DNA of 64,000 bases from an uncultured Gammaproteobacteria bacterium (GCA_964411255.1 CAYPKD010000002.1:162141-226140); one strand, 5' to 3'. Positions 7,151 to 41,016 are shown, numbered from the stretch's first letter. Translations and numbers: made by a program. The notes: generated from the sequence alone by a model not told the origin.

Positions 7151-8029
7151 ATGAGTGAAGAAAAAGAGCAAAAAGAAGAAAAAACAGATTCAATCTTAGC
7201 GCAGGCTGAAGCTGATAAAAAGAAAAAGCAAAAAAAACAGGTAAAGTCATCCACTTTTGCCTCTACTTTGGTTATCATTATTATAGTAGCTGCCATAATA
7301 ATTGGTGGAGGATATTATCTGCAAAATAAGGCAGCGAATGAAAATAAAGACCAGGCTGTTGATCAGACAAAAGAAGAAATGCAGGCTCAAATTGACGAAT
7401 TAAATAAAAAAATATCCAATTTGGAAGACAAGGACATAACAAACCAGGAATTGATAGAGCGGGATTTGCCAGAAGCAGCCAAAGTGGTGGCAGACTGTTC
7501 TCAAAATTTTATAAATTCATATCCGGAGTTTGACCCAAAAATTCATTTTTATTTAGAATATAATAACCGGGCATATGCCAGTTATTACCGGCAAGGATAT
7601 AGGCTTCGGGATATATGCAAGTCAAATGAGAAATTTTTAATGTTTTTTGATTCAAAAAAAAGTTATGAAGATGCGGTTAGGCTTCAAAAAGCATCACCTG
7701 AAGTTAGGCTTGTTAGCTCAAGAGCGGTGATTGGATTGTCAGATAAAATGTTTTTTCAAATGAATTATTACCCTGTAAAGATTGAAAATTATAATTTTGA
7801 GCAGGGTAAAGAATCTGCATGTGTTTTTGACCAGTTTTTAAATGATAAAGTCTTATACATTTGCATAAATGTTTTAGAGCAGGGCAATGAATATATTTGG
7901 TATTCATATGATTCAGTAAAAAAATTAAATCAGAAAGTGCGGATTGAATCACCAAATCCTGAAATTGAAAATGAAACATTTGAGCCAGAGCTTTTAACTT
8001 TATTTTCAAAACAAGCTTTTTCTAATTAA
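7151..8029 (+). CDS. hypothetical membrane-anchored coiled-coil protein
   Basis: Lys-rich N-terminus, TM segment TLVIIIIVAAIIIGGG, then a coiled-coil stretch. Confidence 0.5.
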   Translation: MSEEKEQKEEKTDSILAQAEADKKKKQKKQVKSSTFASTLVIIIIVAAIIIGGGYYLQNKAANENKDQAVDQTKEEMQAQIDELNKKISNLEDKDITNQELIERDLPEAAKVVADCSQNFINSYPEFDPKIHFYLEYNNRAYASYYRQGYRLRDICKSNEKFLMFFDSKKSYEDAVRLQKASPEVRLVSSRAVIGLSDKMFFQMNYYPVKIENYNFEQGKESACVFDQFLNDKVLYICINVLEQGNEYIWYSYDSVKKLNQKVRIESPNPEIENETFEPELLTLFSKQAFSN

Positions 8030-8112
8030 ACATAATCATGTGTGGACAAGACGCTGTCAAAAGTGTTTTTTTTGTTTTAAAATATAAGATATGCAAAATA
8101 AGGAGGGGTATA

Positions 8113-8775
8113 ATGCCAATAATAGCTACTTATCATGTTGATGAGATGGAATTTGGGCAAAGAGTCAGATTAATAAAAACAAGTAATTCAATATTTGTTG
8201 AACCTGATGATAATGGCGATTATGAAATCGCTGGTGTATTTCCTGATGAGCGTCAGGTATTTGTTAATAAAATAATGGACGACGCGATTAATTTTGAAGA
8301 ATGGGATGAAAGAGAAACAACTATTCGTGACTTTGATTGGCAGGACGCTGGGCCGACCCGGCATGATATTACAGAAGATGGTTCAAATGAAGAACGCCTG
8401 CAGGCATTAGCTGATGAAGATCCTGGTTTTGAAGATGATCACGAAGTCAGTGGCCTTCATATGATTAAAGCATACTCATTAGATTTTTTACCAAATGAGA
8501 CAAGGGTGCGATTAAGGCTGCTAAAAGGATATAAATTAGCTGTAAAAGATCCTAATGGTGAGTATGTCGTAACAGCGTCTGTTAAAAAAAAGATTAGAGG
8601 CGCAGATGGATATGAAATTGTAGTCACTCCAGAAGCTGAGCATCAGCGGGCATTTGAGCGGAAGATAGGAGAGCGGTATGTCACTGGCAGAAGAAGCGGA
8701 ATATGCGGGCCGAGCAGAGTGGATTTTGTATCGCCAGAACAATTGGCAGAATTTAGGAAAAAAAGGGAAAAGTAA
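8113..8775 (+). CDS. tandem-paralog family protein 1 (unknown function; internal duplicated ~60-aa module with D-x-NGEY-VV)
   Basis: RBS AAGGAGGGG 8 nt upstream of ATG at 8113. Paralogous to 8893, 9861 and 10712. Motifs HDITEDGSNEER and DPNGEYVVTA. Confidence 0.65.
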   Translation: MPIIATYHVDEMEFGQRVRLIKTSNSIFVEPDDNGDYEIAGVFPDERQVFVNKIMDDAINFEEWDERETTIRDFDWQDAGPTRHDITEDGSNEERLQALADEDPGFEDDHEVSGLHMIKAYSLDFLPNETRVRLRLLKGYKLAVKDPNGEYVVTASVKKKIRGADGYEIVVTPEAEHQRAFERKIGERYVTGRRSGICGPSRVDFVSPEQLAEFRKKREK

Positions 8776-8790
8776 TTTTTTCAAACAAAA

Positions 8791-8814
8791 ACCTTCAGCA
8801 TCTGAAGGTTTTTT
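8791..8814 (+). terminator. conserved terminator cassette copy 1 (CAAACAAAAACCTTCAGCAtcTGAAGGTTTTTT)
   Basis: Hairpin CCTTCAG/CTGAAGG plus T-run. A near-identical cassette follows each of the four paralogs. Confidence 0.7.
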
Positions 8815-8835
8815 AAATTGTGTATAAAAAGGTTA

Positions 8836-8864
8836 TTACAATTAATTTAAATTTGTTGTATAAT
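8836..8864 (+). promoter_or_regulatory. promoter TTACAA-17-TATAAT (upstream TG) for paralog 2
   Basis: -35 TTACAA at 8836-8841, -10 TATAAT at 8859-8864. RBS AAGGAGGGAG before the GTG start. Confidence 0.55.
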
Positions 8865-8892
8865 AAAAGTTGGAAATACAAAGGAGGGAGAA

Positions 8893-9561
8893 GTGAAAAT
8901 ACAAGCATCATATTTAGATTCTAGGATCACTCATGGAATAAAAGTAAGATTAGACAAAGTTGACAATCAAGCGTTTGCTATTCCAGACGAGAATGGCCAG
9001 TATGTGGTCACTGCTGTGTATGAAGAAGATTTTGTCGTATTTGTTGATGAAATAGAAAGATTTAAAGATGTCTGGGGTGAAGACACTGAAGTCTCTATTA
9101 CCAATATAGATAATGATAGTACGGTTCCTGGTAATGATTGGGAAAAGAATCCTATTACTCAGCATGAAATTACAAATAATGGTCATGAAGAACGTGCTAG
9201 GATGCAAAATTTAGATGATGAACAAGATATTGATGAAAATTCAGAAAGAGTTAGTGGATTATTTTTAGCAGTGATGACTTTAGAATTTATACCAGAAAAA
9301 GCTAGAGTTAATATTCAGACATTTAACAATCAGCAGATTGCCTTGCCTGCAGATGATGGCGAGTATGTGGTTTATTCAAACCTAAAGAATGGTCGAGGAA
9401 TATTGGTTGCTCCATATAAAGATGAGAAAAGAATAAAAGAAAGGCAATTGGCTAATCGTTATCTTTTGGGAAGGCCTTGTGGAGCTGGCAGACAAAGTAA
9501 AGCTGATTTTATTTCATCTGAGCAATTAAATCGATTGAGAGATTTGAAAAAAGATAAATGA
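8893..9561 (+). CDS. tandem-paralog family protein 2
   Basis: GTG start after RBS AAGGAGGGAGAA. Motifs HEITNNGHEER and DDGEYVV. C-terminus parallels paralog 1 (RY..GR..G..R.DF.S.EQL). Confidence 0.65.
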   Translation: MKIQASYLDSRITHGIKVRLDKVDNQAFAIPDENGQYVVTAVYEEDFVVFVDEIERFKDVWGEDTEVSITNIDNDSTVPGNDWEKNPITQHEITNNGHEERARMQNLDDEQDIDENSERVSGLFLAVMTLEFIPEKARVNIQTFNNQQIALPADDGEYVVYSNLKNGRGILVAPYKDEKRIKERQLANRYLLGRPCGAGRQSKADFISSEQLNRLRDLKKDK

Positions 9562-9593
9562 TGCAAAACAGAAATAAAATTCAAACAAAAACA

Positions 9594-9620
9594 AAAACCT
9601 TCAGCACTTGGAGGTTTTTT
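9594..9620 (+). terminator. conserved terminator cassette copy 2
   Basis: ATTCAAACAAAAACAAAAACCTTCAGCACTTGGAGGTTTTTT. Confidence 0.65.
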
Positions 9621-9860
9621 AAAAAGCAAAAATCAAAAAGCTTGCCCTGAGCTATGTCGAAGGGTAAAAACTGTGGAGTCGCTTGGCGACCTTTTTTTAT
9701 TCAAACAGCTAAACCCCTAACCCAAACTCAAATTTGCTACAAGTTACATGATATAAGTCGTATGATAAACTGTTGACGAAATGTGGAATAAATTCGCTTA
9801 TTCAATTTATTATTTTATTGTATAATTAAAATTAGGAAATAAAAAAAGGAGAGGGCAGAG

Positions 9861-10502
9861 ATGAAAAAGACAAGAAAGCTTTTTTTGTGTTCATCGAAAA
9901 TTAAAATTCTACCAGGACAAATAGTAAAAGATGAGAATGGCTTTGCTATACCCATCGAAACTTCTAATTTTAAATCACTTAATGAAAACGATATGTATAG
10001 AGTGGTTGGTTATGACGGTGATTGTTCAGTAAAAGTTGTCTCAGTTGACGAAGAGGCCGATTGCTCGACACATAATCCGTGGTGTCATGAAGATACCAAT
10101 CCGCCAGTTCGCCAGCGTATAACTAAAGATCCGGATGAATTAAGGTTTATAAGAGATGAATTAAGAGAAAAACGTCAACCTCATGTTGAGACAAAAACAT
10201 ATTCCGCTCTTATTAAAGGCAATGTAAATGTAATCGAAGGCGATAGGGTCAACATAATTGACTTTGAAGGCATTAATGGAATTGTTATCGCTGTATTAGA
10301 TGCTCTGGGCGTTTATGAAGTGATAGAAGTTGTTCAACATATTAACAAGCCGCTAATTGCCAGGCTTGTAAAAATTCAAAAGTGGAATAAAGCGCAAAGA
10401 GGCGGTCAGTATCCTGATCAGCAAGATTTAAGGGTATCAGATACTTCTTGGGTTGATGATTTCTCAAATATCAAATTTGTCCTAGAAGAAAATGATGATT
10501 AA
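9861..10502 (+). CDS. tandem-paralog family protein 3 (diverged)
   Basis: Upstream TTGTATAAT -10 and RBS AAGGAGAGGG. Shares the ITKDPDE motif and the V-N-V-I-x-GD-x-V module with paralog 4. Confidence 0.6.
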   Translation: MKKTRKLFLCSSKIKILPGQIVKDENGFAIPIETSNFKSLNENDMYRVVGYDGDCSVKVVSVDEEADCSTHNPWCHEDTNPPVRQRITKDPDELRFIRDELREKRQPHVETKTYSALIKGNVNVIEGDRVNIIDFEGINGIVIAVLDALGVYEVIEVVQHINKPLIARLVKIQKWNKAQRGGQYPDQQDLRVSDTSWVDDFSNIKFVLEENDD

Positions 10503-10530
10503 AACAAAAACACAAATTCAAACAAAAACA

Positions 10531-10558
10531 AAAAATCTTCAGCAACTGGAGATTTTTT
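10531..10558 (+). terminator. conserved terminator cassette copy 3
   Basis: ATTCAAACAAAAACAAAAAATCTTCAGCAACTGGAGATTTTTTT. Confidence 0.65.
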
Positions 10559-10711
10559 TAATAGATTAAAGATCTCCGCCAAAGGCGGACGATTTTTTTT
10601 ATTATGTATTATATGGTACAAGCTATGAGCTCTCGTGTATCGTTTGGTTATCAAAATAATTTTTTTATTGTATAATATAAGAGTTGAAAACAAAAAAATA
10701 GGAGGGAGATC

Positions 10712-11260
10712 ATGCTAACAAAATTAAGATTTTGTAATGCAAAATTACAAATAGGCGTAGGAGATAAGGTAATAGACAGAGAGGGCTTAGCATTTCCTGT
10801 TTTGTCTGATTCGACTGAAGATAGCTTAGATGTATTAGAGGTTGTTGAAGTAAATCAAGAAAAACTGGAAGTTTTGACAAGGCCATTTACAAATTTAAAT
10901 GAAGATGCATGGGCTGAAATTTCTGGATCATATGAGATAAAAACAGATCCGGGAAATAATATTACAAAAGATCCAGCGATAGAGACAAAAGGTCATGAAG
11001 AATTTGAAGTATTGATGGCTGTAATTGATGGTGAAGTAAATGTAATCCAAGGTGATCCAGTAAGAATTGTCGGTTATCGAGCACAAGCCGGAATTGTTGA
11101 TGTGGTGCCACATCCTGAAGGAGAGTATGTTATTATTGAAATTATTGCTGAGATGTCTGTACCGCGAAAAGGCTTGTGGGTGCAAATTGAACCAGATTAT
11201 GATGATGACAATGATAATGATTTTGCAGAAAAAGTAAAAGTCAAAATTTATAATGCATGA
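10712..11260 (+). CDS. tandem-paralog family protein 4 (diverged)
   Basis: Upstream TTGTATAAT and RBS AGGAGGGAGA. Motifs NNITKDPAIETKGHEE and PEGEYVIIE. Confidence 0.6.
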   Translation: MLTKLRFCNAKLQIGVGDKVIDREGLAFPVLSDSTEDSLDVLEVVEVNQEKLEVLTRPFTNLNEDAWAEISGSYEIKTDPGNNITKDPAIETKGHEEFEVLMAVIDGEVNVIQGDPVRIVGYRAQAGIVDVVPHPEGEYVIIEIIAEMSVPRKGLWVQIEPDYDDDNDNDFAEKVKVKIYNA

Positions 11261-11280: not shown

Positions 11281-11306
11281 ACCTTCAGCACTGGAGGTTT
11301 TTTTAA
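11281..11306 (+). terminator. conserved terminator cassette copy 4
   Basis: ATTCAAACAAAAACAAAAACCTTCAGCACTGGAGGTTTTTTT. Confidence 0.65.
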
Positions 11307-12012: not shown

Positions 12013-12478
12013 AAGCGAGATAAGCAAGACGAGCAAGAAAGCGAGACAAGTAATCCTTTAATATGGAAAATAAAAAAGAAATAAAAAGTTTTAAAGATAT
12101 TATTGTTTGGCAAAAAGCTCATCAATTGGTTCTGGAAATATATAAGATAACCAAGAATTTCCCAAGCGAAGAGCGATTTTGTTTGGTCAGTCAGATGAGA
12201 AGAGCGGTCATATCAGTAACTGCTAATATTGTTGAAGGTTTTGCCAGGAAAAAGATTTTAGAAAGTTTAAATTTTTATAATATTTCAAATGCTTCTTTAG
12301 AGGAATTAAAATATTTTATATTAATTTGTTATGATATTAATCTAATAACTAAAAATACTTATAGCAAACTATTTGAAATGAGCAAAGAGACAGGAAGGAC
12401 TTTACATGGTTGGATACAAAGTCAAAAAGTTAATGCCAACTTGTCTTGCTCGTTTCACTAGTCTTGCTTGTCTCGCTT
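12013..12478 (+). mobile_element. inverted-repeat-flanked cassette carrying a four-helix-bundle gene (MITE-like, putative)
   Basis: Left inverted repeat AAGCGAGATAAGCAAGACGAGCAAGAAAGCGAGACAAGT at 12013-12051. Right inverted repeat ACTTGTCTTGCTCGTTTCACTAGTCTTGCTTGTCTCGCTT at 12439-12478, which encodes the last 7 codons and the stop. The same repeat family recurs at 13307-13327 and as an apparently empty pair at 34994-35083. Confidence 0.35.
12063..12461 (+). CDS. four-helix-bundle protein (TIGR02436-like; 23S rRNA intervening-sequence protein family)
   Basis: WQKAHQLVLEIYKITKNFPSEERFCLVSQMRRAVISVTANIVEGFAR is typical of the family. Confidence 0.7.
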   Translation: MENKKEIKSFKDIIVWQKAHQLVLEIYKITKNFPSEERFCLVSQMRRAVISVTANIVEGFARKKILESLNFYNISNASLEELKYFILICYDINLITKNTYSKLFEMSKETGRTLHGWIQSQKVNANLSCSFH

Positions 12479-12485
12479 TAACCAT

Positions 12486-13091
12486 ATGGGAGAGCTTACA
12501 AAAAAACAATCAGAAATTTTACGCTTTATAAGTGATTATGTAAAAGAATATGATTATGCGCCAAGCTATCGGGAGATAGGGGATAATTTTAAGATTTCAT
12601 CTCCAGCTACCATTCATCAGCATATTCAAACATTAAAATCCAAAGGATTTTTAGATGTTGATGCGCAAAAAGCCAGATCTATTGAATTGACCAATAAAGT
12701 AATCAAGATGGGCAGAAGCATTGAATTGCCTTTAGTTGGTATGATTACTGCTGGACAGCCGATTGAAGCAATTGAACAAAATGAAACAATGGCCGTGCCT
12801 GCTGATTTAGTCAGAGATGAGAATTCATACATCTTAAAAGTAAAAGGAGAATCAATGATTGAAGAAGGTATTTTTAACGGTGATTTTGTGATTATTGAAA
12901 GAAACAATTATCCTCAGAATGGAGACGTAGTTGTCGCTTTATTAAATAATGCGTATGTCACTTTGAAAAAGTTTTATCGGGAAGCGACCCGCATTCGGCT
13001 GCAGCCTGCCAATTCATCTATGAAACCTATTTATTGCAAAGACGTGGCTATCAGAGGAATTGTAAAAGCTATTATTCGTAAATTTGTTTAA
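12486..13091 (+). CDS. lexA: LexA repressor (S24 peptidase)
   Basis: N-terminal wHTH, Ala-Gly cleavage site (ITAGQP), and catalytic Ser/Lys context VKGESM ... TLKKF. Alternative start at 12468 lies inside the repeat. Confidence 0.8.
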   Translation: MGELTKKQSEILRFISDYVKEYDYAPSYREIGDNFKISSPATIHQHIQTLKSKGFLDVDAQKARSIELTNKVIKMGRSIELPLVGMITAGQPIEAIEQNETMAVPADLVRDENSYILKVKGESMIEEGIFNGDFVIIERNNYPQNGDVVVALLNNAYVTLKKFYREATRIRLQPANSSMKPIYCKDVAIRGIVKAIIRKFV

Positions 13092-13776: not shown

Positions 13777-14985
13777 ATGAAAATAATTCTTCATATAGAC
13801 ATGAATTCGTATTTTGCTTCAGTTGAGCAGCAGGCCAATCCTTTTTTGCGTGGTAAGCCAATTGTGGTCAGCGGAAAAGAAGATTCCCGGACCGTTATTG
13901 TGGCTGCTTCGATCGAAGCTAAAAAATTTGGAATAAAAACAGCAATGAATGTTTTTGAAGCAAAAAAACTTTGCCCAAATTTATATTTTGTTCAGCCAGA
14001 TCCGCAAAAATACGCTCAGGTAACCAATTCTTTTTTTGAAATATTTAAAAGGTATAGCAGTGAGGTTGAGCTTTTTAGTATTGACGAGGCTTTTTTAGAT
14101 TTAACAAAATATGTAAAAAATTTTAATCAGGCACATATTGTTGCAAAAAAAATTAAGGAACAAATTAAAAATGAAATAGGAGAGAGGATTACTTGTTCTG
14201 TGGGCATTTCATTTAATCGTATTTTAGCAAAATTAGCTGCTAATATGAAAAAACCTGATGGTCTGGTGGTGATTGAAGAGAAAGATAAGTTAAAAGTGTT
14301 AGATTCAATAAAACCAAATGATTTATGCGGATTGGGCCCTCGTCTGGCAAAGAGGCTTAATAATTTAGGATTGGATACTTTAAGGAAAATCAGACAAGCA
14401 AATAAGCAAATAATGCTGGATGAATTTGGCCCGTATTGGGCTCCGAGATTGCAAAAAATGGCAGCTGGAGAATTAGATGAAACAATCACTCCGTATTATA
14501 AAGAAGAGCAGCTAAAGTCAGCAGGTGCTTCTTATACCTTGCCTCAAAATACTTATGATAAAAATTATCTTTATCAAATATTAATTCAGCTGGTTGAAAA
14601 AGTATGCCGTCGGCTGAGGAAAAATAATTTGAGCGCAAAAACAACCGCATATTTTTTGAGATTTGAGGATTTTACTCATTGGGGAGAAAGAAAAACCTGG
14701 ACTAATTATTTATATGATGAGGTAAATTTTTTTGAATGGGCAAAATCGCAAATTGAAAGATTAATTTTTCCCAAGGCTGTCAGATTAATTGGCTTTAGAG
14801 CAGGAAATGTGATTGAAAGTAATAATCAAATGCCTTTATTTATAAAAGAAAGGAAAAAATTTTTATTAATAAAATCCTTGGATAAAATCAATGATATTTA
14901 TGGTGAACGTACCATTTTTAGCGCAGCCATGCTGGATGTGCCCAAATTAAAAAGGCGCGCAGGAGGATTTAAATTTGAAATCTAA
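13777..14985 (+). CDS. dinB: DNA polymerase IV (Y-family, DinB/UmuC-like)
   Basis: N-terminus ILHIDMNSYFASVEQ and the palm motifs are typical of Y-family polymerases. Confidence 0.85.
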   Translation: MKIILHIDMNSYFASVEQQANPFLRGKPIVVSGKEDSRTVIVAASIEAKKFGIKTAMNVFEAKKLCPNLYFVQPDPQKYAQVTNSFFEIFKRYSSEVELFSIDEAFLDLTKYVKNFNQAHIVAKKIKEQIKNEIGERITCSVGISFNRILAKLAANMKKPDGLVVIEEKDKLKVLDSIKPNDLCGLGPRLAKRLNNLGLDTLRKIRQANKQIMLDEFGPYWAPRLQKMAAGELDETITPYYKEEQLKSAGASYTLPQNTYDKNYLYQILIQLVEKVCRRLRKNNLSAKTTAYFLRFEDFTHWGERKTWTNYLYDEVNFFEWAKSQIERLIFPKAVRLIGFRAGNVIESNNQMPLFIKERKKFLLIKSLDKINDIYGERTIFSAAMLDVPKLKRRAGGFKFEI

Positions 14986-14993
14986 AAAAGTAA

Positions 14994-15024
14994 AAGCCCG
15001 CATTGTGAAGCTACGGGCTTTGTC
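14994..15024 (+). terminator. terminator after dinB
   Basis: AAGCCCG-cattgtgaagcta-CGGGCTT followed by TGTCTTAT. Confidence 0.5.
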
Positions 15025-15587
15025 TTATGGGAGTAGGGTAAAGACCCTGAATTAGTGTCTCCGATAAGTGTTTGGACCAGGGTCGATTTGATTAGGTGTG
15101 ATAATGAGATGGGAAGGGATGTAGTTGAAATGACAGATGGATTGGTTGTGAAATTTGCTTTTCGAAGTTGAAGTATTAAAGTGAGCTGGACAGAAATTCC
15201 AAAAGCAAATGTAAGCGGGTGATTTATTGATTCGACCTGAGGTCTTTGACTTTATTTGAAAGAACAGATGTGCTGCTTGAAAGATTTATAAGGCCGGGTT
15301 TTGGTGGCTGTTTCTAGAGAGAAACGTTAAATTGCCACTTGGTCATTTGTTCTGTTTTTATTGAAGATCACAGAGCAAAGTATCCATTCGGTTTCTTGGT
15401 AGGCATTACTATTTAGCGTGCCCCCCTTAACCGTGTCAGGCCTTCATGTCTTTGTTTTAATTAGTTAGGCATTTTCAGCCAGCTAATTTGATTTAAGCTG
15501 CACACTACTTTATATCATATTTTTTTAAAAAAGTCAATACCTTTTAATGATTTTTCGCTATTTTTAGCTATTTTTTTCAAAACAAAA

Positions 15588-15612
15588 AGGATCCAAATTT
15601 GATAAGGATCCT
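15588..15612 (-). terminator. terminator (minus strand) for 15611..15868
   Basis: AGGATCC/GGATCCT hairpin overlapping the stop. The minus strand is followed by TTTTGTTTTG. Confidence 0.55.
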
Positions 15613-15868
15613 ATACAGCTATTTTGAGCTGTTCTCCTTCAGGAGTTAATTCATGAAAAGTGGTTTCCAGAATATCCTTAATTGTTCTGCGAATAGCAGT
15701 TGGATACTTTGGATCTTCAAGCATTTCCCGAATGACAGGAATTGCTAGTCCGCCCAGCTTTTTGATTTTAACCAGGCGTCTACTAATTTCACGATTTGGT
15801 CCAATTCCTGCCTGCCGCCAGGCAAGAATGGTTTCTAAAAGATCTTTTGCTTTTTGTGAATTAGTCAC
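15611..15868 (-). CDS. hypothetical small protein (85 aa)
   Basis: ORF downstream of the GGDEF gene on the same strand. Confidence 0.45.
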   Translation of the reverse strand: MTNSQKAKDLLETILAWRQAGIGPNREISRRLVKIKKLGGLAIPVIREMLEDPKYPTAIRRTIKDILETTFHELTPEGEQLKIAV

Positions 15869-18183: not shown

Positions 18184-19155
18184 ATGAACAAACAAAAACT
18201 AATGAAACTTTTGGGAAAATTAATGGAAGAAAATGTTTTATTTGGACCGACCAAAGAGGAAGAGATCGTAATCAGACAAATCAGAGATTTAAAACAAATT
18301 GACTGGAGTTTTCAGATCCCAAAGCAAAGCTTTAAGCATTTATTGCTTCCGGCAAGGGAAAGATTGCTTGAACAAAAAGGTGCTCAACTAAAGGAGGTTT
18401 TTGATATTAAATCTCAGGTTATTTTTGGCGTAAATATTTTAGATTTGCAGGCATTAACGTATTTAGAAACAATTTTTAGCGAAGATCCATATTTTCAAAA
18501 ACGAAAAGCAAAAACTATTGTAATTGGCTATAGTTCTGGGATTCCTGAAGATTATAGAAAATATAAAATATTTCATGAAAAGTATCGTGAAGATAAGCTT
18601 GAACACATGATGTTTGATATTTTTATAGAAGAGCAAAAGAATAAAAATTTAAAAGTATTTTCTGGTTCAGAAAAAGGGCAAAAGGTTTTAGATAAAAATG
18701 GCATTAAAGACTATGTAAATATTGAATATGCTGGTCCGATTAGAGAGGAAGGTCCAGATCCGGATTTCGTTTTAAAAAATAAACAAGCAATTGAAAAAGT
18801 AACAGCCAAATCAAAAGTTTTTAAAGACATTGGCAATATATGTATAGCCTGTGGCAAGTGCTCATTAGCATGTCCTTTATGCTTTTGTTTTGAGCATGAA
18901 GATGTAAAAGACGGGGATAAAATAACTAGAGAGAGAAGATGGTCAACCTGCTTTTTCCCTGAATTTACAAAGATTACCGGCGGAGAAAATGATATGAAAG
19001 ATGCAGCACAAAAACTTTATTATTGGTATTATCATAAATTTGTGCGAATGACAGATGAATATAAGTTCCCAGGTTGCGTCAGCTGTATGAGATGTTATAA
19101 AGTGTGTCCGGCTGGAATTAATATTGCTAAGAACTTAAAAAACTTAAAAACATGA
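18184..19155 (+). CDS. hydB: [NiFe] hydrogenase group 3b-like beta subunit (4Fe-4S ferredoxin-type)
   Basis: CIACGKCSLACPLCFC and CVSCMRCYKVCPAG Fe-S motifs. Overlaps the next gene by 4 nt (ATGA). Confidence 0.6.
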   Translation: MNKQKLMKLLGKLMEENVLFGPTKEEEIVIRQIRDLKQIDWSFQIPKQSFKHLLLPARERLLEQKGAQLKEVFDIKSQVIFGVNILDLQALTYLETIFSEDPYFQKRKAKTIVIGYSSGIPEDYRKYKIFHEKYREDKLEHMMFDIFIEEQKNKNLKVFSGSEKGQKVLDKNGIKDYVNIEYAGPIREEGPDPDFVLKNKQAIEKVTAKSKVFKDIGNICIACGKCSLACPLCFCFEHEDVKDGDKITRERRWSTCFFPEFTKITGGENDMKDAAQKLYYWYYHKFVRMTDEYKFPGCVSCMRCYKVCPAGINIAKNLKNLKT

Positions 19156-19958
19156 GGAATCCATATAAAGTAGACAAAGCAAAGATTATAAAAAAAGAAA
19201 AGCAAAATGATATTACATATTTGTTTCGTTTGAAATTATCATCTGTTTTGCAGAAAAATTTTGAATTTCTTCCAGGTCAATTTATGCAGGTGGGATTAAT
19301 GGGATTTCGTGAAGCACCAATTAGTATCAGCTCAGATCCAAAAGATTCAAAAAAATATATTGAGCTAACAATTCGCGGAGTTGGCAGGATAACCAATAAA
19401 CTTATTAGTTTAAAAACTGGAGATGAAATGCTTATCCGCGGTCCATTTGGCAATGGATTTCCAGAAGTAAAAGACAAGAATTTAATTTTAATTGGCGGTG
19501 GATGCGGCTTTGTACCTTTGCGATCTGTGATTGAAGCTTATGGAAATGATAAAAAGATTAAAATGCAAATACTGATTGGCTGCAAAGATAAAAATACATT
19601 ATTTTTCAAAAAAAGTTTTAACCAATGGAAAAAAAAGCATGATTTTAATTTAATTTTAGAAAAAGGTAAGTTGCCTGGTTTTGCAAAAAAATCTGGTTTT
19701 GTCACTGATTTGCTGGATCAGCCTTTGCTTGAAAATTCATTGATTTTTATAGTAGGACCTCCAGTTATGTATAAACATGTGGTCCAAATACTTTTACAGA
19801 AAAAAATAAAACCAGAGGATATTTATTTAAGTTTAGAAAAAAGAATGTATTGCGGCCAAGGAGTATGTCAGCATTGCGCTATTGGTACAAAATATATTTG
19901 CAAAGATGGCCCGGTATTTTCTTATAGAGAGCTAAACAATATGTTATATAGTTTATAG
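19152..19958 (+). CDS. hydG: [NiFe] hydrogenase group 3b-like gamma subunit (FAD/NAD-binding oxidoreductase with 2Fe-2S)
   Basis: RGPFGNGF and LIGGGCGFVP motifs. C-terminal CGQGVCQHCA cluster. Confidence 0.65.
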   Translation: MRNPYKVDKAKIIKKEKQNDITYLFRLKLSSVLQKNFEFLPGQFMQVGLMGFREAPISISSDPKDSKKYIELTIRGVGRITNKLISLKTGDEMLIRGPFGNGFPEVKDKNLILIGGGCGFVPLRSVIEAYGNDKKIKMQILIGCKDKNTLFFKKSFNQWKKKHDFNLILEKGKLPGFAKKSGFVTDLLDQPLLENSLIFIVGPPVMYKHVVQILLQKKIKPEDIYLSLEKRMYCGQGVCQHCAIGTKYICKDGPVFSYRELNNMLYSL

Positions 19959-20000
19959 ACGCTACATGATTTTACAGATTTGCTACAAGATATTACAGAT

Positions 20001-20438
20001 ATGACAAAATACATTTATGAGAATTTAACGTATGATTTGATTGGTATATTTTATGAAGTTTATAATTGCTTGGGTCATGGTTATAAAGAAAGAACATATT
20101 GTAATGCAATCATGAAACTTTTACGGAAAAATAATTTGGATTTTGCATATCAATTTAAAGTGCCGGTAAAGATAAGAGATGAAATAGTATGTAAAAGGTA
20201 TTTAGACTTTTTAATAGATGATAAAGTGATAGTTGAGATTAAAGTAGGTAATAAAAGCTCAGGAAGAGATTTTAAGCAAATAAAAGAATATTTAAATTTA
20301 TCTGGATATAAACTTGGACTTTTAGTATTATTTCGAGATAAAGATGTTAAAATATATCGTATTGCCAATTTATACAAAACTGAGATCCGTATCATCTGTA
20401 GCAGATCTGTGGATCTCGTAGTAACATTATGCAAGTAG
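20001..20438 (+). CDS. GxxExxY protein (PD-(D/E)xK-like, TIGR04256-type small cassette protein)
   Basis: GYKERTY (G-x-x-E-x-x-Y) and DFLIDDKVIVEIK. Hairpin-rich flanks. Inserted between hydrogenase genes. Confidence 0.55.
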   Translation: MTKYIYENLTYDLIGIFYEVYNCLGHGYKERTYCNAIMKLLRKNNLDFAYQFKVPVKIRDEIVCKRYLDFLIDDKVIVEIKVGNKSSGRDFKQIKEYLNLSGYKLGLLVLFRDKDVKIYRIANLYKTEIRIICSRSVDLVVTLCK

Positions 20439-20956
20439 TTCACGAAGAAACACAAAAATTTAGTTTAATGATGGGCTTATTAGTTTTAGGTTCAATGGTT
20501 ATTATTGGCGCATATTTAGTCATTCAATGGCAAAAAGGAGTATTATCAGAACTTTCCACCTGGCCGTATATATTTTTAGGATTGATTTTGATTTTAGATA
20601 TATTTTTTATTGCAAATTTTTATCAATTGAAAATTATTTTAACAAATGATCGTTTAATATTTGGATTTGGAATTCTGCGAAGAAAAATAAAACTTTCAGA
20701 TATCAAAGAGATAACCTTAGAAAAATTTGATTTTCAGCGCTATATGGGTTATGGAGTGAGAACAGGAAGAGATAAATCAATTGGCTATGTGGCAAGAAAT
20801 TCCGATGGTATTCGGTTAAAAGTGGCAAATCAAAAAGACTTTTTTATTACCTCTGATGATGCGTCCAGATTAAAATCCATGATTGAATCACAATTAGGCG
20901 GATCAAAATCATATGAAAAAGAACCAAATATTGGAATCAGCTTTGAAGCTGAATGA
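20429..20956 (+). CDS. membrane protein with bacterial PH-like (DUF304-like) domain
   Basis: Two TM segments followed by LTNDRLIFGFGILRRKIKLSDIKEI. The start may instead be the internal Met at 20468. Confidence 0.45.
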   Translation: MQVVHEETQKFSLMMGLLVLGSMVIIGAYLVIQWQKGVLSELSTWPYIFLGLILILDIFFIANFYQLKIILTNDRLIFGFGILRRKIKLSDIKEITLEKFDFQRYMGYGVRTGRDKSIGYVARNSDGIRLKVANQKDFFITSDDASRLKSMIESQLGGSKSYEKEPNIGISFEAE

Positions 20957-20959
20957 TTT

Positions 20960-21703
20960 ATGAGTAAAAAGAAATTACAAGTAGGAATTTTATCAATGAC
21001 ATCTTGCGAGGGATGCTGCTTTGCTTTACTAGATGCAACGGAAAAGTATTTAGAATTGTTTAAAGAAGTTGATTTTTCTTTTTTTCGATTATGGAAGCCA
21101 GAAGAAAATATAGCATTGAAAAAATTTGATATTTGTTTTGTAGAGGGTAGTCCAATTACTAAGCATAATATTGAGCAGCTAAAAACAGCCAGGCAAAACA
21201 GCAAAATTTTAGCCAGCTTTGGAACATGTGCGCATTTGGGCGGTATTTATCATTTGAAAAATTATTATAATAAGGACGAAATTATAAAAGAAGTATATAC
21301 AGAAACAAAAGGCATTGATAATCCATATGTATATCCAGCAAGTCATTATGTGAAAATAGATTTTGATGTACCAGCATGTCCAATTGATGCTAAAGAATTT
21401 TTTAGGATGATTAATGAAATAATTATTGGACGCTTGCCAAAAATTCCACAGCATACTGTATGTTATGATTGCCAGAAAAATGGATATCAGTGCGTTTTGC
21501 AAAAAGGCGAAATTTGTTTAGGTCCAATTACCCAAACTGGCTGCAATGCGATTTGCTTGAAAAGTAAACAGGGCTGCTGGGGTTGCAGGGGATTGATAAA
21601 AGATGCAGAAGTTGAGAACCTTACAAAATTATTGAAAAAGAAACATACGACAAAGGAAATTAAAGACGCTCTGGAAATTTTTGGGATTAGGGATTTTATT
21701 TAA
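20960..21703 (+). CDS. hydD: [NiFe] hydrogenase small (delta) subunit
   Basis: N-terminal Cys motif SMTSCEGCC, later GTCAHLGG and ACPIDAKEFF. Confidence 0.7.
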   Translation: MSKKKLQVGILSMTSCEGCCFALLDATEKYLELFKEVDFSFFRLWKPEENIALKKFDICFVEGSPITKHNIEQLKTARQNSKILASFGTCAHLGGIYHLKNYYNKDEIIKEVYTETKGIDNPYVYPASHYVKIDFDVPACPIDAKEFFRMINEIIIGRLPKIPQHTVCYDCQKNGYQCVLQKGEICLGPITQTGCNAICLKSKQGCWGCRGLIKDAEVENLTKLLKKKHTTKEIKDALEIFGIRDFI

Positions 21704-23139
21704 AATAAAACGACTGGAAACCTGTTAGAATCCAGCCGTGATATTTAAGGCGTGCCCCAAGTACAAGGATTTGGAGGCCCAGCCTTACTTTCCGGCCAAG
21801 GAAAGAGGCCAAAAAAGTACTTGGAGCACATAGATGCCCAAGGCGCAGAAAGTTTTATAACCAGGAATTCTATCAGAATTCTGATGGTTGTTGACCTGGT
21901 ATAATCAAACCGCACCTTGGGACAATGCTGCTGTATGCAGCAAATTAAGTTTATTAAAAATTTGTATTTCAGTCAAGTATTTAAAAATTAAAGACTGAGC
22001 ACTCGTTGAGACTCAGTCTTTATAGTTGTTTAGGAGGTAATCTGAAGAATATTGTTGAACCCATTTCCTCAGACTGCGATGCATAATTAAAATTAATAAG
22101 TGAGCCTACATATTAGCTTTATTTGCCACATTACCTATGCATTAACAAAATTGGCAAAGCTAGCTTAGGCCTCGTAGCTTCAGAGTGGTTCTGAAGCCGA
22201 ACCTGACCCTCCTCGATCAGTTCAGATTCTACATTTTTACTTTCCATGTTGAAAGTGCTGGGTTCAGAGCATGTAGATTATCATAATAATATAGCATAGT
22301 TTTTAAATAAAGTCAATAGATTAAATTTATACAAAATTAAAAGCTGAAAGTATGACTTTCAGCAAGTAAATAAGAAGGGGGAAGAGGTTGCACAGAAAAG
22401 AGATTTTGCCCACTTTTCTGTACTATGTTTCATAGATTCCGGGTAAAAATTTGTGAAGACCAGCAAAGATCAGCAAAACATTACAGACATTTTATTGCGG
22501 CCACTACTTAAACCCTGGGCGGCATTAAAAGGTTTTGTAGCTATACTGAAATGCTGAGCTAACCCTCTAAAATTAGCTCCTTCCTGTGTTCATCTGGGCA
22601 TGAGTAATAGAAAACAGGATCATATATATTTTATCATAATGTGATAAAAATGTCAAGTATTAGTTTTTTAAAAAAGAAAGACTGAGAACTCATGGAGTCT
22701 CAGTCTGTCAACGTTTTTGGAGGTGTTCAGAAAAATTGTGAGCCCTGGTCTTCTGAACGAGGTTTTTAATTAATTTAAAATTAATTATAGTTGAGCTATT
22801 ACTGCACCTTCCTGACCCTTCATATAAAAAATTTTTTTTACGCATGATTCATTTATAGATCACACGCACGAGAAAGGGGTGGGGCAGGCAGATGCAAAGC
22901 TCGTAGCTGTTTCTGCAGAACTGCTGCAGATTCAGCCTGCTGGTCCTCCAAACCAGCTGATCCATTCTCCTTTGGATGTCCAAATTTAGAGGCACCCAGG
23001 GCTCAAGGAGATTATCATGGATCATGTTACATATATAGTATAGCATATATTTCAATAAAAGTCAATATGTATTATAAAAAATTAGCTAATTTTAGCTAAA
23101 ATTTACAAAAAATATTATTGCTTAGATATTAAATAAAAT
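21704..23139. repeat. 1.4-kb ORF-free, hairpin-dense region of diverged tandem repeats inside the hydrogenase operon
   Basis: Two homologous units of about 680 bp begin GTCAAGTATT (21972 and 22653). Each carries a conserved stem AGACTGAG(A)/(T)CTCAGTCT (21990-22022 and 22678-22709) whose loops differ. Further hairpins at 21757/21817, 22183-22203 and 22342-22365. GC-rich islands. Confidence 0.6.
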
Positions 23140-24402
23140 ATGAAAACAATAAAAATAAACCATATTGCTAAAACTGAAGGTCACATGAGTTTTATAGGCT
23201 CATTGCTTGAGGGTGATATTGCAAAAGCCAAACTGGAAACTGAAGAAGGTGCTAGACTGTTTGAAGGCATGGTCATTGGCCGGCCATATTATCAAATGCC
23301 AGTAATTGTAGCCAGAATCTGCGGTGTTTGCCCGATTGTTCACAATTTAGCTTCGGTTAAAGCAATAGAAAATGCTTTTAATGTCAAAGTGAGTAAAGAA
23401 GTTATTTTACTTCGAAAAATATTGGAATTTGTTCAGATAATTCATAGCCATACTTTGCACATGTTCTTTTTGTCTTTTCCTGATTTGGTTGGAGTTTCAA
23501 ATAATACAGATATTGTAAAAAAATATCCAAAGCAGTCGAAGATTGCATTGGAAGTCAGGGATTGGGCTGTGCAAATGGCAAAGCTTATTGGCGGCAGAAC
23601 TGTGCATCCGATCAATAGTGTAGTCGGTGGATTTAATGTTTTGCCAGATGAAGAAAAGCTAGCTTTATATTTAAAACAAATTCCAAAACAGGTAAAGCTA
23701 TCGGTTAAACTTTTTGACTTTTTAAAAAATCATAAAATTCCAAAGTTTTCAAACCCTTCAAATTATTTGGCTTTAAAAACGAAAAATGAATATGCTATTT
23801 ATGATGGCAAAGTATATTTTTTGGATAATAAAAAAACACAGGATTCAAAAATGTTTTATTCAGACGTCGCTGAAGAAAGCTTGCCATATCAGACAGTGAA
23901 ACGTGCTTATCATTTTGATCAGCCAATGATGTGCGGCGCTTTGGCCAGAATAAATTGTAATTGTAATCAATTAAATAAAGTGGCAAAGAAAAACTGGAAA
24001 GAACTTAGAGTGAAAATGCCAGATTATAATCCATTTCATAATATTTTAGCTCAAGCAGTAGAAGTTATACATTGCTATGAAGAATGTGATAAATTAATTT
24101 CTCAATATATGAGAATCAAAGATAAAAATATACAAGCTAAATATAAAGTAAAAGAGGGAAGAGGGATTGGAGTGATTGAAGCGCCGCGGGGTCTTTTGTT
24201 TCATGAATATAAATTTGATAAGCAAGGATTAATGAAGGAATGCAATATTTTAACGCCAACATCCTTGTTTATTGCTAATTTAGAAAAAGATTTAGAACAA
24301 TATTTACCAACATTAAACAATTTAACAGATGAGAAAAGAGATTTAATGATAAAAACATTGATCAGGGCGTATGACCCTTGTGTTTCCTGCGCCACTCATT
24401 AG
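23140..24402 (+). CDS. hydA: [NiFe] hydrogenase large (alpha) subunit
   Basis: N-terminal RICGVCPIVH (RxCGxCxxxH). C-terminal DPCVSCATH is the very end of the protein, so there is no C-terminal extension. Confidence 0.85.
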   Translation: MKTIKINHIAKTEGHMSFIGSLLEGDIAKAKLETEEGARLFEGMVIGRPYYQMPVIVARICGVCPIVHNLASVKAIENAFNVKVSKEVILLRKILEFVQIIHSHTLHMFFLSFPDLVGVSNNTDIVKKYPKQSKIALEVRDWAVQMAKLIGGRTVHPINSVVGGFNVLPDEEKLALYLKQIPKQVKLSVKLFDFLKNHKIPKFSNPSNYLALKTKNEYAIYDGKVYFLDNKKTQDSKMFYSDVAEESLPYQTVKRAYHFDQPMMCGALARINCNCNQLNKVAKKNWKELRVKMPDYNPFHNILAQAVEVIHCYEECDKLISQYMRIKDKNIQAKYKVKEGRGIGVIEAPRGLLFHEYKFDKQGLMKECNILTPTSLFIANLEKDLEQYLPTLNNLTDEKRDLMIKTLIRAYDPCVSCATH

Positions 24403-24408
24403 TAAAAT

Positions 24409-24669
24409 ATGCACGATCTTCATTTAGCAGATAAAATTCATAAGCTAGTTCTTGAAAAGGCAAAAGAAAACAATTGCCAAAAGGTAAGTGAGATTGTGGT
24501 TGAACTGGGTTTTATTAAAGAGCACGGCGAGGATATTTTGCCTGAAAATTTAAAATATAATTTAGAATTATTAAATAAAAAAACAATTGCTGAGAATGCT
24601 AAAATTCAAATTAAAAAAGTTGACGGAAAAGAAAATTATTGGAGTCTTCGGGAGATTAGAGCAGAGTAA
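24409..24669 (+). CDS. HypA-like hydrogenase maturation factor, N-terminal domain only (no zinc finger)
   Basis: Begins MHDLHLADKIHKLVLEKAKENNCQKVSEIVVELG, like the HypA N-terminus (MHE.S/L...). The C-terminal CxxC pairs are absent. Confidence 0.35.
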   Translation: MHDLHLADKIHKLVLEKAKENNCQKVSEIVVELGFIKEHGEDILPENLKYNLELLNKKTIAENAKIQIKKVDGKENYWSLREIRAE

Positions 24670-37621: not shown

Positions 37622-39808
37622 ATGTACCTTGACACCAAGGAGGGTCAGATGACAAAAGACACCCAAAAAGTAGAAGAAATTATGCCTGGCTGCAAAGTTA
37701 TTCATACTTCAGCAGGCGAAATTATGGTGGGCTGTCCATCTGAAATTTTAAAGGTTTTTGCCAGACAAAACAGGCAAGTGCCTCAAGCAATTGTATTGCC
37801 AACTCATTTTTTTAGTTATGGAATTGTTCAGGCAGCACTTGAATTTGTGCTGTATAATTTTCTGTTTATTCAGGGAAGATTTTTCAAAGGTGAGAAGCTG
37901 ACTGTTTTTGGAACTGAAAAGCAAATTAATAGAATGACTGGACTTTTGCATCTGACTTTGAATGGGCCAAGTCGGTCAACGATGGAGAACTGGGGAATCC
38001 CTAAAGATCAAATTGATTTAGTAGAAAAGTTTTCAGATCATTTTCGTCTTAAGGATAAAAGCGGAAAGCCCTTGGCAATTTGCGAATTGATTAATTTTAG
38101 GAAGTTTAAATATGGTCATCCAGAGCTTCGGTTTGAACGGATTAATATTTCTATCAAAGATCAAAATGTTTTTAAGTTTGAGGATCAGTATACGGAAACT
38201 TTTGTTGATATAAATATTAAGGAAGCTCAAAGGCCGCAGATTCCTATCCCTGTACCACGCGAATTGCCTCCGCGAGCAGTGCTTGGAGCAACAGCTTTGA
38301 GTAAATGCACAACAGGTTTTGACCATACAGGATATACTTCTGGAGTTATTCTTTGGATCAATGGTATGGGTGTTTCTGTGGATGGCGTAGCCTGGATGAA
38401 AGAGCATTTGAGAAGCTTTGGCATAAATACAACTGAAATAAAAGCGCATATTGTCACTCATATACATGATGACCATAGCAATATTTTTGATTTAATTGTT
38501 AACGGAAAAGTTTTTAACCTGATTTCAGATAAATTGGGTTATCATTGTTTGGTTTCAAAAGCAGCTCTTCTCCTGGATATGCCCGAAGAGGAAATTAAGA
38601 AAATGATCCAGTTAATTGAGGTTATACCTGGCCAGCCGCTTCATTGGCATGGCGCAACTTTTGAATTTTGGCCAGTTGCTCATCCGATTCCAACAATGGG
38701 ATTTAGGGTAACGGTAGCTGGAAAATCAATCGTTTATTCAGCTGATACGATTTGGGGATCAAAGCTGAATAAATTATTCGATTCAGGCGTGATACCAAAG
38801 GATGTTTGTGAAAGAATTCAGGATGTGCCAATGCTGGGTTCAGAGCTGACATTCCATGACGCTGGCGGCGGAATGATTCACCCTGATTTGAAAGAATTGG
38901 CAGACCTGCCAGAACAGATTAGGCGCCACATCGTTCCAACACATATGGAACAAGTGCCTGACGAGCTGAGAGATAAGTTTGATCCGATCGAACCTGGTCA
39001 AAGCTGGGAATTGATCGGTCAAAGGACTTGGGATGTTAGTGATTTCATGAGAGTTTCACATGCGCCAATTCTTTCCAGTATTAGCGAAGAATGGATGCAT
39101 GTTGTGATTTCTCAGGGAAGAACCAAAGAGTATCCTGCCAACTATACTTTGCTTCAGGAAGGCAAGTTCGGTAAAAGCTTTTACCTTTTAATCGGCGGAA
39201 CTGTCAAAGTGTTATATAATAACGAGCGTGTGGCAACTCTCTCCACTGGAGATTTCTTTGGCGAAATTTCTTTAATGTACGATATTCCATGTACAGCTTC
39301 GATTGTGACAAAAAGTCCGATCAAAGTGCTTGAGCTGCCACAGGATATTTTTATGGAAATGGTTTCCTGTACGGGCTTGATGAAAAAGCTGGAGAAAATT
39401 CATCAGATTCGTCCTGTCCTGATTCAGTTGGCAACAATCAAGGATCTGCCTGCTCCGGTTCAGAATAGGCTTGTTGAAGCGACAAATCTTACACAGGTTA
39501 AAGCTGGTGAGGTGATTATCAAGCAGGGAGATGCTGGAGATCGGTTTTACGGAATCGTTTCTGGCAAAGCAGATGTTTTTTCCCAGGCTGATCCAAAATC
39601 ACCAAAGCGGCACATTGCTACATTGTATAGAAATCAGTGCTTTGGAGAAATGGCGCTGATAGGTAATGGAGTAAGAACAGCAGATGTTGTCGCTCAAACC
39701 GACATGGAACTGTTTTCCTTAACCAAAGAAGATTTTGTCAGAATTATTGGGCAGACTCCAATGTTCTTTTACGCAATAGGTATTTTGGCTCAAAGTAGAG
39801 CCAGATAA
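37622..39808 (+). CDS. metallo-beta-lactamase-fold protein fused to two cyclic-nucleotide-binding (CAP_ED) domains
   Basis: MBL motif HIVTHIHDDH (HxHxDH). Two cNMP-binding signatures FGEISLMYDIPCTASIVT and FGEMALIGNGVRTADVVA. N-terminal ~250 aa of unknown function. Confidence 0.65.
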   Translation: MYLDTKEGQMTKDTQKVEEIMPGCKVIHTSAGEIMVGCPSEILKVFARQNRQVPQAIVLPTHFFSYGIVQAALEFVLYNFLFIQGRFFKGEKLTVFGTEKQINRMTGLLHLTLNGPSRSTMENWGIPKDQIDLVEKFSDHFRLKDKSGKPLAICELINFRKFKYGHPELRFERINISIKDQNVFKFEDQYTETFVDINIKEAQRPQIPIPVPRELPPRAVLGATALSKCTTGFDHTGYTSGVILWINGMGVSVDGVAWMKEHLRSFGINTTEIKAHIVTHIHDDHSNIFDLIVNGKVFNLISDKLGYHCLVSKAALLLDMPEEEIKKMIQLIEVIPGQPLHWHGATFEFWPVAHPIPTMGFRVTVAGKSIVYSADTIWGSKLNKLFDSGVIPKDVCERIQDVPMLGSELTFHDAGGGMIHPDLKELADLPEQIRRHIVPTHMEQVPDELRDKFDPIEPGQSWELIGQRTWDVSDFMRVSHAPILSSISEEWMHVVISQGRTKEYPANYTLLQEGKFGKSFYLLIGGTVKVLYNNERVATLSTGDFFGEISLMYDIPCTASIVTKSPIKVLELPQDIFMEMVSCTGLMKKLEKIHQIRPVLIQLATIKDLPAPVQNRLVEATNLTQVKAGEVIIKQGDAGDRFYGIVSGKADVFSQADPKSPKRHIATLYRNQCFGEMALIGNGVRTADVVAQTDMELFSLTKEDFVRIIGQTPMFFYAIGILAQSRAR

Positions 39809-40934: not shown

Positions 40935-41016
40935 TGTTTTCCTCCTCTGTGAATGAACAAGTCAATAGTGAAGATATTTTATAAAATGGCCTCTGCTATT
41001 GCTTTGTTCTGGATTA

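Follow-up and report, generated by a model that had tools for sequence, protein, structure and literature searches.

Can a [NiFe] hydrogenase still work when other DNA lies between its subunit genes, its large subunit ends without a C-terminal tail and its HypA-like partner lacks a zinc domain, and what is the DNA that separates the genes? These questions are raised by a hydrogenase gene cluster at positions 18184-24669 of a 64-kb stretch of DNA with a GC content of ~31% (the window, to which all coordinates refer unless a related locus is named). A first-pass annotation had described the cluster as an operon invaded by three unrelated inserts and had asked whether it was still functional. We compared it with related loci, designated here by L-numbers (L004, L053 etc.). 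Our reading, to which we give a probability of roughly 0.7, is that the cluster encodes a working group-3b-type (sulfhydrogenase-like, NAD(P)-linked) [NiFe] hydrogenase of a bacterium of the Patescibacteria/candidate phyla radiation (CPR), and that the 1.4-kb block between the delta and alpha genes is made up of four genes for structured small RNAs (sRNAs).

The delta-alpha block (21704-23139) is without an open reading frame (ORF) and is the longest ORF-free stretch of the window, with a GC content of 0.34-0.40 as against ~0.27-0.35 in most flanking genes. It had been called a noncoding repeat block; it is indeed ORF-free, but it is not a repeat, since only stretches of 15-40 nt recur within it, the longest of them at promoters and terminators. 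What had been missed are four promoter-RNA-terminator units on the strand opposite to the hydrogenase genes. A promoter scan of the block returned 15 sites where 5.7 were expected; the top four, all of them minus-strand, have 17-nt spacers, match the sigma-70 consensus at 9-11 of 12 positions and, in three of four cases, are TG-extended. Each of these promoters sits 35-50 nt after the preceding terminator, and a hairpin with a T-run follows 240-360 nt downstream of each. The first predicted unit, U1 (22667-23030), has the promoter TTGACT-17-TATACT (23037-23065, TG-extended), a hairpin termed P2 (22939-22957), the element CCUCCAAA (22716-22723) and a terminator hairpin at 22676-22709 with a T-run to 22667. 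U2 (22333-22620) has the promoter TTGACA-17-TAAAAT (22628-22656, TG-extended, 11/12), P2 at 22556-22579, CCUCU at 22383-22387 and a terminator hairpin at 22343-22363 with a T-run to 22333, while U3 (21980-22281) has TTGACT-17-TATATT (22288-22316, TG-extended), P2 at 22203-22220, CCUCCU at 22032-22037 and a terminator hairpin at 21990-22021 with a T-run to 21980. U4 (21700-21941), which is of a different type, is preceded by TTGACT-17-TAAACT (21948-21976) and ends in a terminator hairpin at 21711-21738 with a T-run to 21700, which lies right against the delta stop codon. In 8 of the 11 units examined, the minus-strand RNA is the better folder of the two complementary strands. Fold z-scores in the block are as low as -8.7 for U1 and -8.3 for U4. 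The block probably consists of four independent genes for structured sRNAs. No Rfam 15 family matches the block at the gathering threshold, the best E value at a permissive threshold is >=1.9, and a tRNA is the only family matched in the window as a whole.

Sequence divergence from close relatives bears on whether these units are maintained. L053 and L008, whose alpha subunit is 92% identical to that of the window in protein and 87.7% in DNA, carry U1, U2 and part of U3. Between the window and L053, identity is 68% at fourfold-degenerate alpha sites and 67-80% in promoter spacers and inter-unit DNA, as against 86%, 92% and 80% in the RNA bodies of U1, U2 and U3, respectively, and 91-97% in the terminators. 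In L053 the TG and both hexamers (-35 and -10) are conserved, whereas the spacers drift. Among 113 predicted base pairs of U1, two show compensatory changes, five a one-sided wobble change and none is broken; all 79 predicted pairs of U2 are likewise unbroken. Several one-sided changes (G-U to A-U or G-C) keep pairing on the minus strand only. These comparisons show that the RNA bodies evolve under purifying selection and that the predicted structures are maintained by compensatory change.

Units of two types occur in the block and in related loci. Type B comprises U1, U2, U3, their copies in L053, and units at L004 7497-7287 (L004B), L051 496-301 (L051b) and L082 2398-2191 (L082B). Its layout is a 5′ hairpin, the P2 hairpin with a (U)GGAGG loop, a variable core, a CCUCC(A/U) element and the terminator. 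The P2 stem is fully paired (6/6) in nine copies with five different stem sequences. The P2 loop shows Watson-Crick complementarity of 5-8 bp to CCUCC (8 bp in U1), and the CCUCC element lies 47-52 nt from the 3′ end wherever the longest Watson-Crick match falls on it. For the four best cases, a loop-tail match of the observed length was reached in 17 (U1), 49, 103 and 221 of 2000 shuffles. Only Watson-Crick pairs were counted, since with G-U pairs admitted a purine loop finds a partner in any U-rich tail and the test is uninformative. Loop and tail covary at two positions, G-C being replaced by A-U in U2 and the adjacent pair appearing as U-A, A-U, G-U or U-G. A type B descriptor gives three matches in the window, all in the block, and 0-1 in shuffles. 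Furthermore, a covariance model built from three relatives' units alone returns full-length U2 as its top match in the window (E 3e-4) and, with filters off, the 3′ modules of U1 (E 0.003) and U3 (E 0.098).

Type A comprises U4, L051 817-547 (L051a) and L004 7955-7690 (L004A), along with a two-unit form in L049 and L083. It consists of two long hairpins joined by AUCUAUGUGCUCC, with GGCCUCCAAAU in the second hairpin; in U4, CCUCCAAAU is exposed within that second hairpin. U4 shares 77% identity with L051a over 142 nt (E 4e-27), and compensatory changes are found in 8 of the 22 pairs of the hairpin-2 stem. Type A is a single unit in the window, L004 and L051; in L049 (2063-2437) and L083 (1159-1497) it appears as separate 5′-hairpin and 3′-hairpin units, each with a hairpin and T-run, and three of these four split units (not L083b) have a promoter match. 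The split form reflects either fusion or fission of sRNA genes.

The number and order of units vary from locus to locus. The delta-alpha slot holds at least three units in L053, two each in L004, L051, L049 and L083, at least one in L082 and one in L007, where the single, shorter unit is of another type. The order is alpha-B-B-B-A-delta in the window, alpha-A-B-delta in L004 and alpha-A5′-A3′-delta in L083. No copy outside this slot was found by nhmmer and the structural descriptor in the window and ~50 related loci, or by the covariance model in the window. A pattern scan of viral contigs gave 27 matches that look like chance, none of them confirmed by nhmmer. Judging from its length and contents, the delta-alpha junction is a permissive, fast-evolving slot: it varies from 54 nt to 1.7 kb among relatives, and in distant relatives it holds plus-strand genes, including YibE_F, NUDIX, a large ORF with an N-terminal hydrophobic segment (no family), a 340-aa ORF (no family) and a small membrane protein. 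The YibE_F gene occupies the slot in both L006 and L049.

Several observations weigh against our reading of the locus. The promoters and terminators are consensus matches only, read from sequence, and the folds of U2 and U3 surpass those of shuffled sequences by a modest margin only (z -2.6 and -3.4). The loop-tail pairing of type B rests on two covarying positions among paralogues and amounts to only 5 bp in U2. The RNA families are confined to a narrow clade (alpha at least ~73% identical) and to this one slot, with few independent sequences, and a close relative, the L006/L038 lineage, has the YibE_F gene and no sRNA there. Because some relatives are without units, the RNAs are dispensable for the hydrogenase and a necessary role in it is unlikely; any functional link between the two would be hypothetical. 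As for the enzyme itself, neither hypB-F nor an endopeptidase gene is present among the scanned ORFs of at least 120 aa in the 64-kb window.

The arrangement of the units has consequences for the transcription of the cluster. The four sRNA genes would be transcribed toward delta, convergent with it and divergent from alpha, and the cluster would be split into at least two transcription units, one running from beta through gamma, the GxxExxY gene (where present) and a membrane protein gene to delta, and the other from alpha and its HypA-like neighbor onward. Convergent transcription and the terminators would then uncouple alpha from the upstream genes; given four strong convergent promoters with terminators, transcription of delta and alpha must be separate, whatever the RNA products do. 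Alpha is preceded by a candidate promoter of its own, TTTACA-17-GATATT (23102-23130, plus strand), a weak match (9/12) whose candidate role would be to give a near-leaderless alpha mRNA, and L004 has TTCGCA-17-TATAAT ahead of alpha. We infer that transcription of the units yields free regulatory RNAs, which would work in trans by binding RNA or protein and would not be components of the hydrogenase.

Translation signals in the window bear on how such RNAs might act. About 13 window genes have a strong AAGGAGG Shine-Dalgarno sequence (SD) 5-7 nt before the start (for example 8102, 8883, 10701, 37639, 44694 and 60309 on the plus strand and 40945, 34933, 33844, 15879 and 6444 on the minus strand), and most others, including all hydrogenase genes, have none. 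An SD is absent from 14 of 14 genes whose upstream sequence was read, several of which have a -10-like box just before the ATG; in several SD-less genes a TATAAT-like box lies 7-9 nt before the ATG, which suggests leaderless mRNAs. A simple anti-SD seed role for CCUCC is not well supported, and because the internal GGAGG loop matches it, the type B CCUCC would be structural or gated, not a free seed. We favor, with low confidence, a role that depends on the fold (binding of a protein or ligand by the RNA, or pairing through a gated element), because SD complementarity stops at 5 nt and the internal loop-tail match reaches 7-8 bp. A search for targets with RNAduplex over 62 translation-start regions was rejected, since the duplexes it returned were long, interrupted and meaningless, and hydrogenase genes were not enriched.

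Alternatively, the units might act in cis, their convergent transcription and complementarity to delta-alpha read-through (as RNase III substrates) setting the alpha:delta ratio or silencing upstream genes, with the RNA products irrelevant. This would fit the constant position of the units in the delta-alpha junction of carrier lineages, on the strand opposite to the hydrogenase genes, the abutment of the U4 terminator on the delta stop and the candidate promoter of alpha. However, a role in cis does not need a conserved fold, yet the RNA bodies exceed neutral-site conservation and their stems compensate. Copy number ranges from 0 to 4, with plus-strand protein genes in the slot in L006/L038 and distant relatives, and each unit terminates efficiently on paper, so that little antisense RNA should reach delta. 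We therefore consider action in cis unlikely, though it is the alternative that fares best.

The block could also be what is left of a mobile element or of protein genes that have decayed (e.g., YibE_F), its promoters and terminators being chance look-alikes in AT-rich DNA. The high variability of the slot, the YibE_F gene in L006 and L049 and the 82-85% identity of the U1 and U3 ends all lend themselves to this idea. It is nonetheless very unlikely, given that tblastn finds no YibE_F remnant in the block, that neither terminal inverted repeats nor a transposase is present there, that the promoter-like sites are in excess, with the four best on one strand, equally spaced and regularly placed, and that hexamers are kept while spacers drift and bodies are under purifying selection.

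Scarcely probable, too, is the idea that the units are minus-strand mRNAs encoding very small proteins. ORFs of 27-68 aa do exist on that strand, and a real small-protein gene with the same style of promoter and terminator lies between alpha and HypA in L004 and L051. However, none of the ORFs on either strand of the block is credible: the start of the 68-aa U1 ORF falls within the promoter, its stop codon is lost in L053 and its nonsynonymous changes coincide exactly with the compensating hairpin arms, no SD with a start codon follows the GGAGG loops, and no ORF is common to the paralogous units. Plus-strand small ORFs after GGAGG motifs were considered as well and are neither conserved nor credible. 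The small-protein genes at the alpha-HypA junction of L004 (9347-9637, minus strand) and L051 (2212-2508, minus strand) encode proteins of 96 and 98 aa that are 33% identical (E 5e-14), share an FCII motif and have no Pfam match; the L004 gene has its own consensus promoter and terminator, and the gene is absent from the window. A minus-strand ORF at L050 1513-1827, read by eye only, is a possible third gene of this kind.

The hydrogenase genes themselves are laid out as first annotated, with the ORF map agreeing on coordinates, order and the contiguity of beta and gamma. The beta gene (18184-19155, plus strand) encodes a HydB/ShyB-like 4Fe-4S protein (Pfam Fer4_22, 1.4e-24; best NCBIfam matches sulfhyd_HydB and sulfhyd_ShyB) and overlaps by 4 nt the gamma gene (19152-19958, plus strand), which encodes an FAD/NAD(P)-binding, 2Fe-2S protein (Pfam FAD_binding_6, NAD_binding_1 and DHODB_Fe-S_bind; NCBIfam gamma, ShyC and HydG). 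The delta (small) subunit gene (20960-21703, plus strand; Oxidored_q6) gives an end-to-end alignment with Pyrococcus furiosus SHI delta in which each Cys-containing motif visible is retained, and the alpha (large) subunit gene (23140-24402, plus strand; NiFeSe_Hases) encodes both Ni-Fe ligand motifs, RICGVCPIVH in the N-terminal part and DPCVSCATH at the C-terminus. The identical alpha protein is encoded on 11 contigs, and the 1.4-kb block is 100% identical in three independent assemblies (ENA, Logan and JGI), which excludes an assembly artefact.

All lines of comparison place the enzyme near group 3b, as had been proposed. The best NCBIfam matches of all four subunits are the sulfhydrogenase families HydABGD/ShyABCD, and the best matches in the PDB are SHI-type enzymes: SHI alpha (4e-59, in an alignment that reaches the mature C-terminus) ranks ahead of Mvh (group 3c, 2e-50), Frh (3a, 3e-40) and the NAD-reducing enzyme (3d, 4e-39), and delta matches SHI/Hyh structures best (2e-42). 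Against NCBIfam, alpha scores 248 bits with ShyA, 167 with VhuA and 152 with FrhA, all under the equivalog cut-offs (700 for ShyA-type alpha), and because the scores fall so far below them, group-3b-like is the right wording. P. furiosus SHI/SHII and Thermococcus kodakarensis Hyh (PDB 9e15, 9nez, 5yxy) have the same four subunits, domain content and L1/L2 and small-subunit Cys motifs; compared with them, the window cluster has an extra conserved membrane protein and variable slots. Alpha homologues carry source names such as Patescibacteria, Parcubacteria, Kuenenbacteria and Falkowbacteria, with labels such as 'sulfhydrogenase subunit alpha' attached to them, and group 3b enzymes have already been reported in CPR bacteria (PMC10811913).

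Divergence among relatives indicates that the enzyme is kept. For the four subunits, nonsynonymous divergence (dN) is 0.12-0.25 against L004, L006 and L007 (0.16 for beta against L004), with synonymous divergence (dS) saturated, and alpha differs from L053 by 0.064, 0.031 and 0.273 at codon positions 1, 2 and 3, respectively. The hydrogenase cluster is very probably functional and, by these measures, under purifying selection. The least probable reading of all is that the operon is degrading, with three junk inserts and truncated HypA and alpha in a pseudogenizing cluster, for although the subunit genes are separated by unrelated DNA, HypA is without its zinc domain and no hypB-F turned up among the scanned ORFs, the ORFs of the cluster are intact in every relative, dN is far under dS, the Cys ligands are kept, tail-less alpha and small HypA are fixed across the clade, and the window's ATP synthase operon has interruptions of the same kind.

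The two features that made the cluster look damaged are shared by its relatives. As first annotated, the alpha gene has its stop directly after the His of DPCVSCATH, leaving no C-terminal extension and therefore no substrate for a maturation endopeptidase. Alpha ends exactly at the His of DPCxxCxxH in 120 of the 120 best homologues (45-92% identity), so the missing tail is a trait of the clade and not a peculiarity of this locus. The archaeal group 3b alpha precursor, in contrast, has four extra residues (chains of 428 versus 424 aa). Large subunits without an extension are still matured by the Hyp machinery in the H2 sensors of groups 2b/2d, the CO-dehydrogenase-linked group 4c, the Ech-type 4e and 4g (PMC7294309); alpha shares with them its end at the DPCxxCxxH His, here in a group-3b-like clade that lies outside that list (PMC7294309). 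It is reasonable to suppose that alpha maturation includes no endopeptidase step, which would be unsurprising.

The HypA-like ORF (24409-24669, plus strand, 86 aa) encodes the Ni-binding domain only, without CxxC, as had been noted and as Pfam (HypA 8e-10, profile positions 1-69 of 112), PDB, a structural model and 13 relatives all confirm. It matches HypA profiles and T. kodakarensis HypA only within residues 1-72, the PDB match being limited to residues 1-68. A HypA of 83-86 aa without CxxC, here called mini-HypA, is found in 13 of 13 relatives examined, down to 44% alpha identity, and all 14 sequences, including that of the window, start with MHD. Its dN is 0.19-0.28 against L004, L006 and L007, with dS saturated. 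An AlphaFold2 model (mean predicted local distance difference test score 84) has T. kodakarensis HypA as its top Foldseek match (template-modeling score 0.69 to 5yy0_B) over ~70 columns that correspond to the Ni domain. T. kodakarensis HypA (PDB 3a43; HyhL-HypA complex 5yxy/5yy0) has the same M-H-(D/E) start and the predicted Ni-domain fold at 31-33% identity; compared with known HypA (~113-139 aa), mini-HypA is without the entire zinc-finger domain (two CxxC pairs) throughout the clade. By its distribution and divergence, the ORF is a conserved mini-HypA, not a decayed gene. In known systems the HypA zinc domain takes part in conformational signaling (PMC12134894), and by analogy the partner docking of mini-HypA may differ from that of known HypA. 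Tail-less alpha and zinc-less HypA together would make a streamlined, clade-wide route of nickel insertion without a proteolytic step, and the clade would be a natural minimal case of nickel insertion without proteolysis or the HypA zinc domain.

The three supposed inserts are of three different kinds. In L004, L006 and L007, whose alpha subunits are 66-73% identical to that of the window, the common order is IMS polymerase, two small membrane proteins, beta, gamma, a ~160-aa protein, delta, alpha and an 86-aa HypA (annotated as 97 aa in L007), followed by PGK, SIMPL, enolase, two iPGM genes and Fpg, and this synteny is kept in more than 10 loci. The ~160-aa protein is the orthologue of the window ORF at 20429-20956 (plus strand), is found down to ~52% alpha identity and lies between gamma and delta in L004, L006, L007, L010, L016, L017 and L018, with a dN/dS of 0.27 against L004. 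This ORF, described in the first-pass annotation as a PH-domain membrane protein, does encode a membrane protein, with two transmembrane segments, but its bPH assignment falls under the Pfam cut-offs (E 0.006). On the evidence of synteny and divergence, it is a conserved member of the cluster and not an insert; the 1.4-kb block, for its part, consists of candidate RNA genes.

The GxxExxY gene is thus left as the only one of the three that answers to the description. Its assignment to the GxxExxY/PD-(D/E)xK family stands (20001-20438, plus strand; PDDEXK_3, PF13366 1.1e-24, 87.5 bits against a cut-off of 22; TIGR04256 88.3 bits against a cut-off of 35), and it is a clear member of that family in which only the position within the cluster is unusual. 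The gene is absent from its position in L004, L006 and L007; L004 and L082 have a CBU_0592-family ORF at this spot, and L014 and L023 have a 35%-identical GxxExxY homologue between gamma and delta. Judged by this distribution, it is a lineage-specific insert, alone among the protein genes of the cluster. It shares 10 nt with the start of the next gene, and its 3′ end (20380-20438) crosses an inverted repeat, GAGATCC...GGATCTC, with an internal CAGATCTG palindrome; the Pfam domain does not include the final ~25 codons, which may result from reading through the boundary of an insertion.

Interruption of this sort is normal in this genome, since the F-type ATP synthase operon of the window (51538-59666) is interrupted likewise. 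A 23S_rRNA_IVP (four-helix-bundle) gene (52854-53249) lies between its A-chain and B-chain genes, and a cyclophilin peptidyl-prolyl isomerase gene (58424-59173) between its beta and epsilon genes. A second 23S_rRNA_IVP/bAvd-like gene (12063-12461) immediately precedes the genes for LexA (12468-13091) and a Y-family polymerase (13777-14985). For a whole Patescibacteria clade, operons with interruptions, large subunits without a tail and HypA without zinc are the normal, selected state, and metabolic reconstructions should therefore not discount such hydrogenases.

Multi-copy sRNA families whose members have their own promoters and terminators include the streptococcal csRNAs (with a CCUCC anti-SD), Qrr and PrrF. 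The units described here resemble them in being several paralogous, separately promoted and terminated genes with a CCUCC element and divergent bodies. They differ in being longer (240-360 nt), highly structured and in tandem inside a hydrogenase cluster, and they have no sequence or Rfam similarity to them. TIGR arrays, which are arrays of 36-nt repeats (PMC12045711), are unlike the units. A brief search of the literature on CPR sRNAs found no such sRNAs described for this phylum group. Two candidate structured sRNA families absent from Rfam 15 would be a new element of modest novelty, in a hydrogenase locus whose other traits are ordinary for its clade. That a reduced genome devotes 1.4 kb of a single, rapidly reshuffled locus to four RNA genes with strong promoters suggests a function. 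One could go further and see in the type A and B RNAs an undescribed, Patescibacteria-specific structured class with a functional tie to the group-3b hydrogenase: riboregulators that respond to redox state, H2 or nickel, or else RNA partners governing alpha/delta expression, with the GGAGG/CCUCC pairing as a switch. With tail-less alpha and mini-HypA, they would form a distinct, minimal system of expression and maturation in CPR bacteria; so specific a proposal is, at present, quite unlikely to hold in full.

Other features of the window lie outside the cluster. The second-longest ORF-poor stretch (14986-15659, 674 nt, GC 0.37) contains several plus-strand terminator-like hairpins and has no Rfam match at the gathering threshold. 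At 7151-11260 there is a run of SD-led ORFs without Pfam matches, possibly a paralogous gene set, and near-identical terminator-like sequences (CCTTCAGCAC-T(T)GGAGGTTTTTT) follow two ORFs in this region, at 9598-9625 after the ORF at 8893-9561 and at 11281-11305 after the ORF at 10712-11260. Two adjacent radical-SAM genes, one with a SPASM domain, are found at 39843-42012 (minus strand), adjoined by a gene at 37622-39808 (plus strand) for a 728-aa protein that combines a metallo-beta-lactamase fold with a pair of cNMP-binding domains, and a Translin-family gene lies at 42112-42690.

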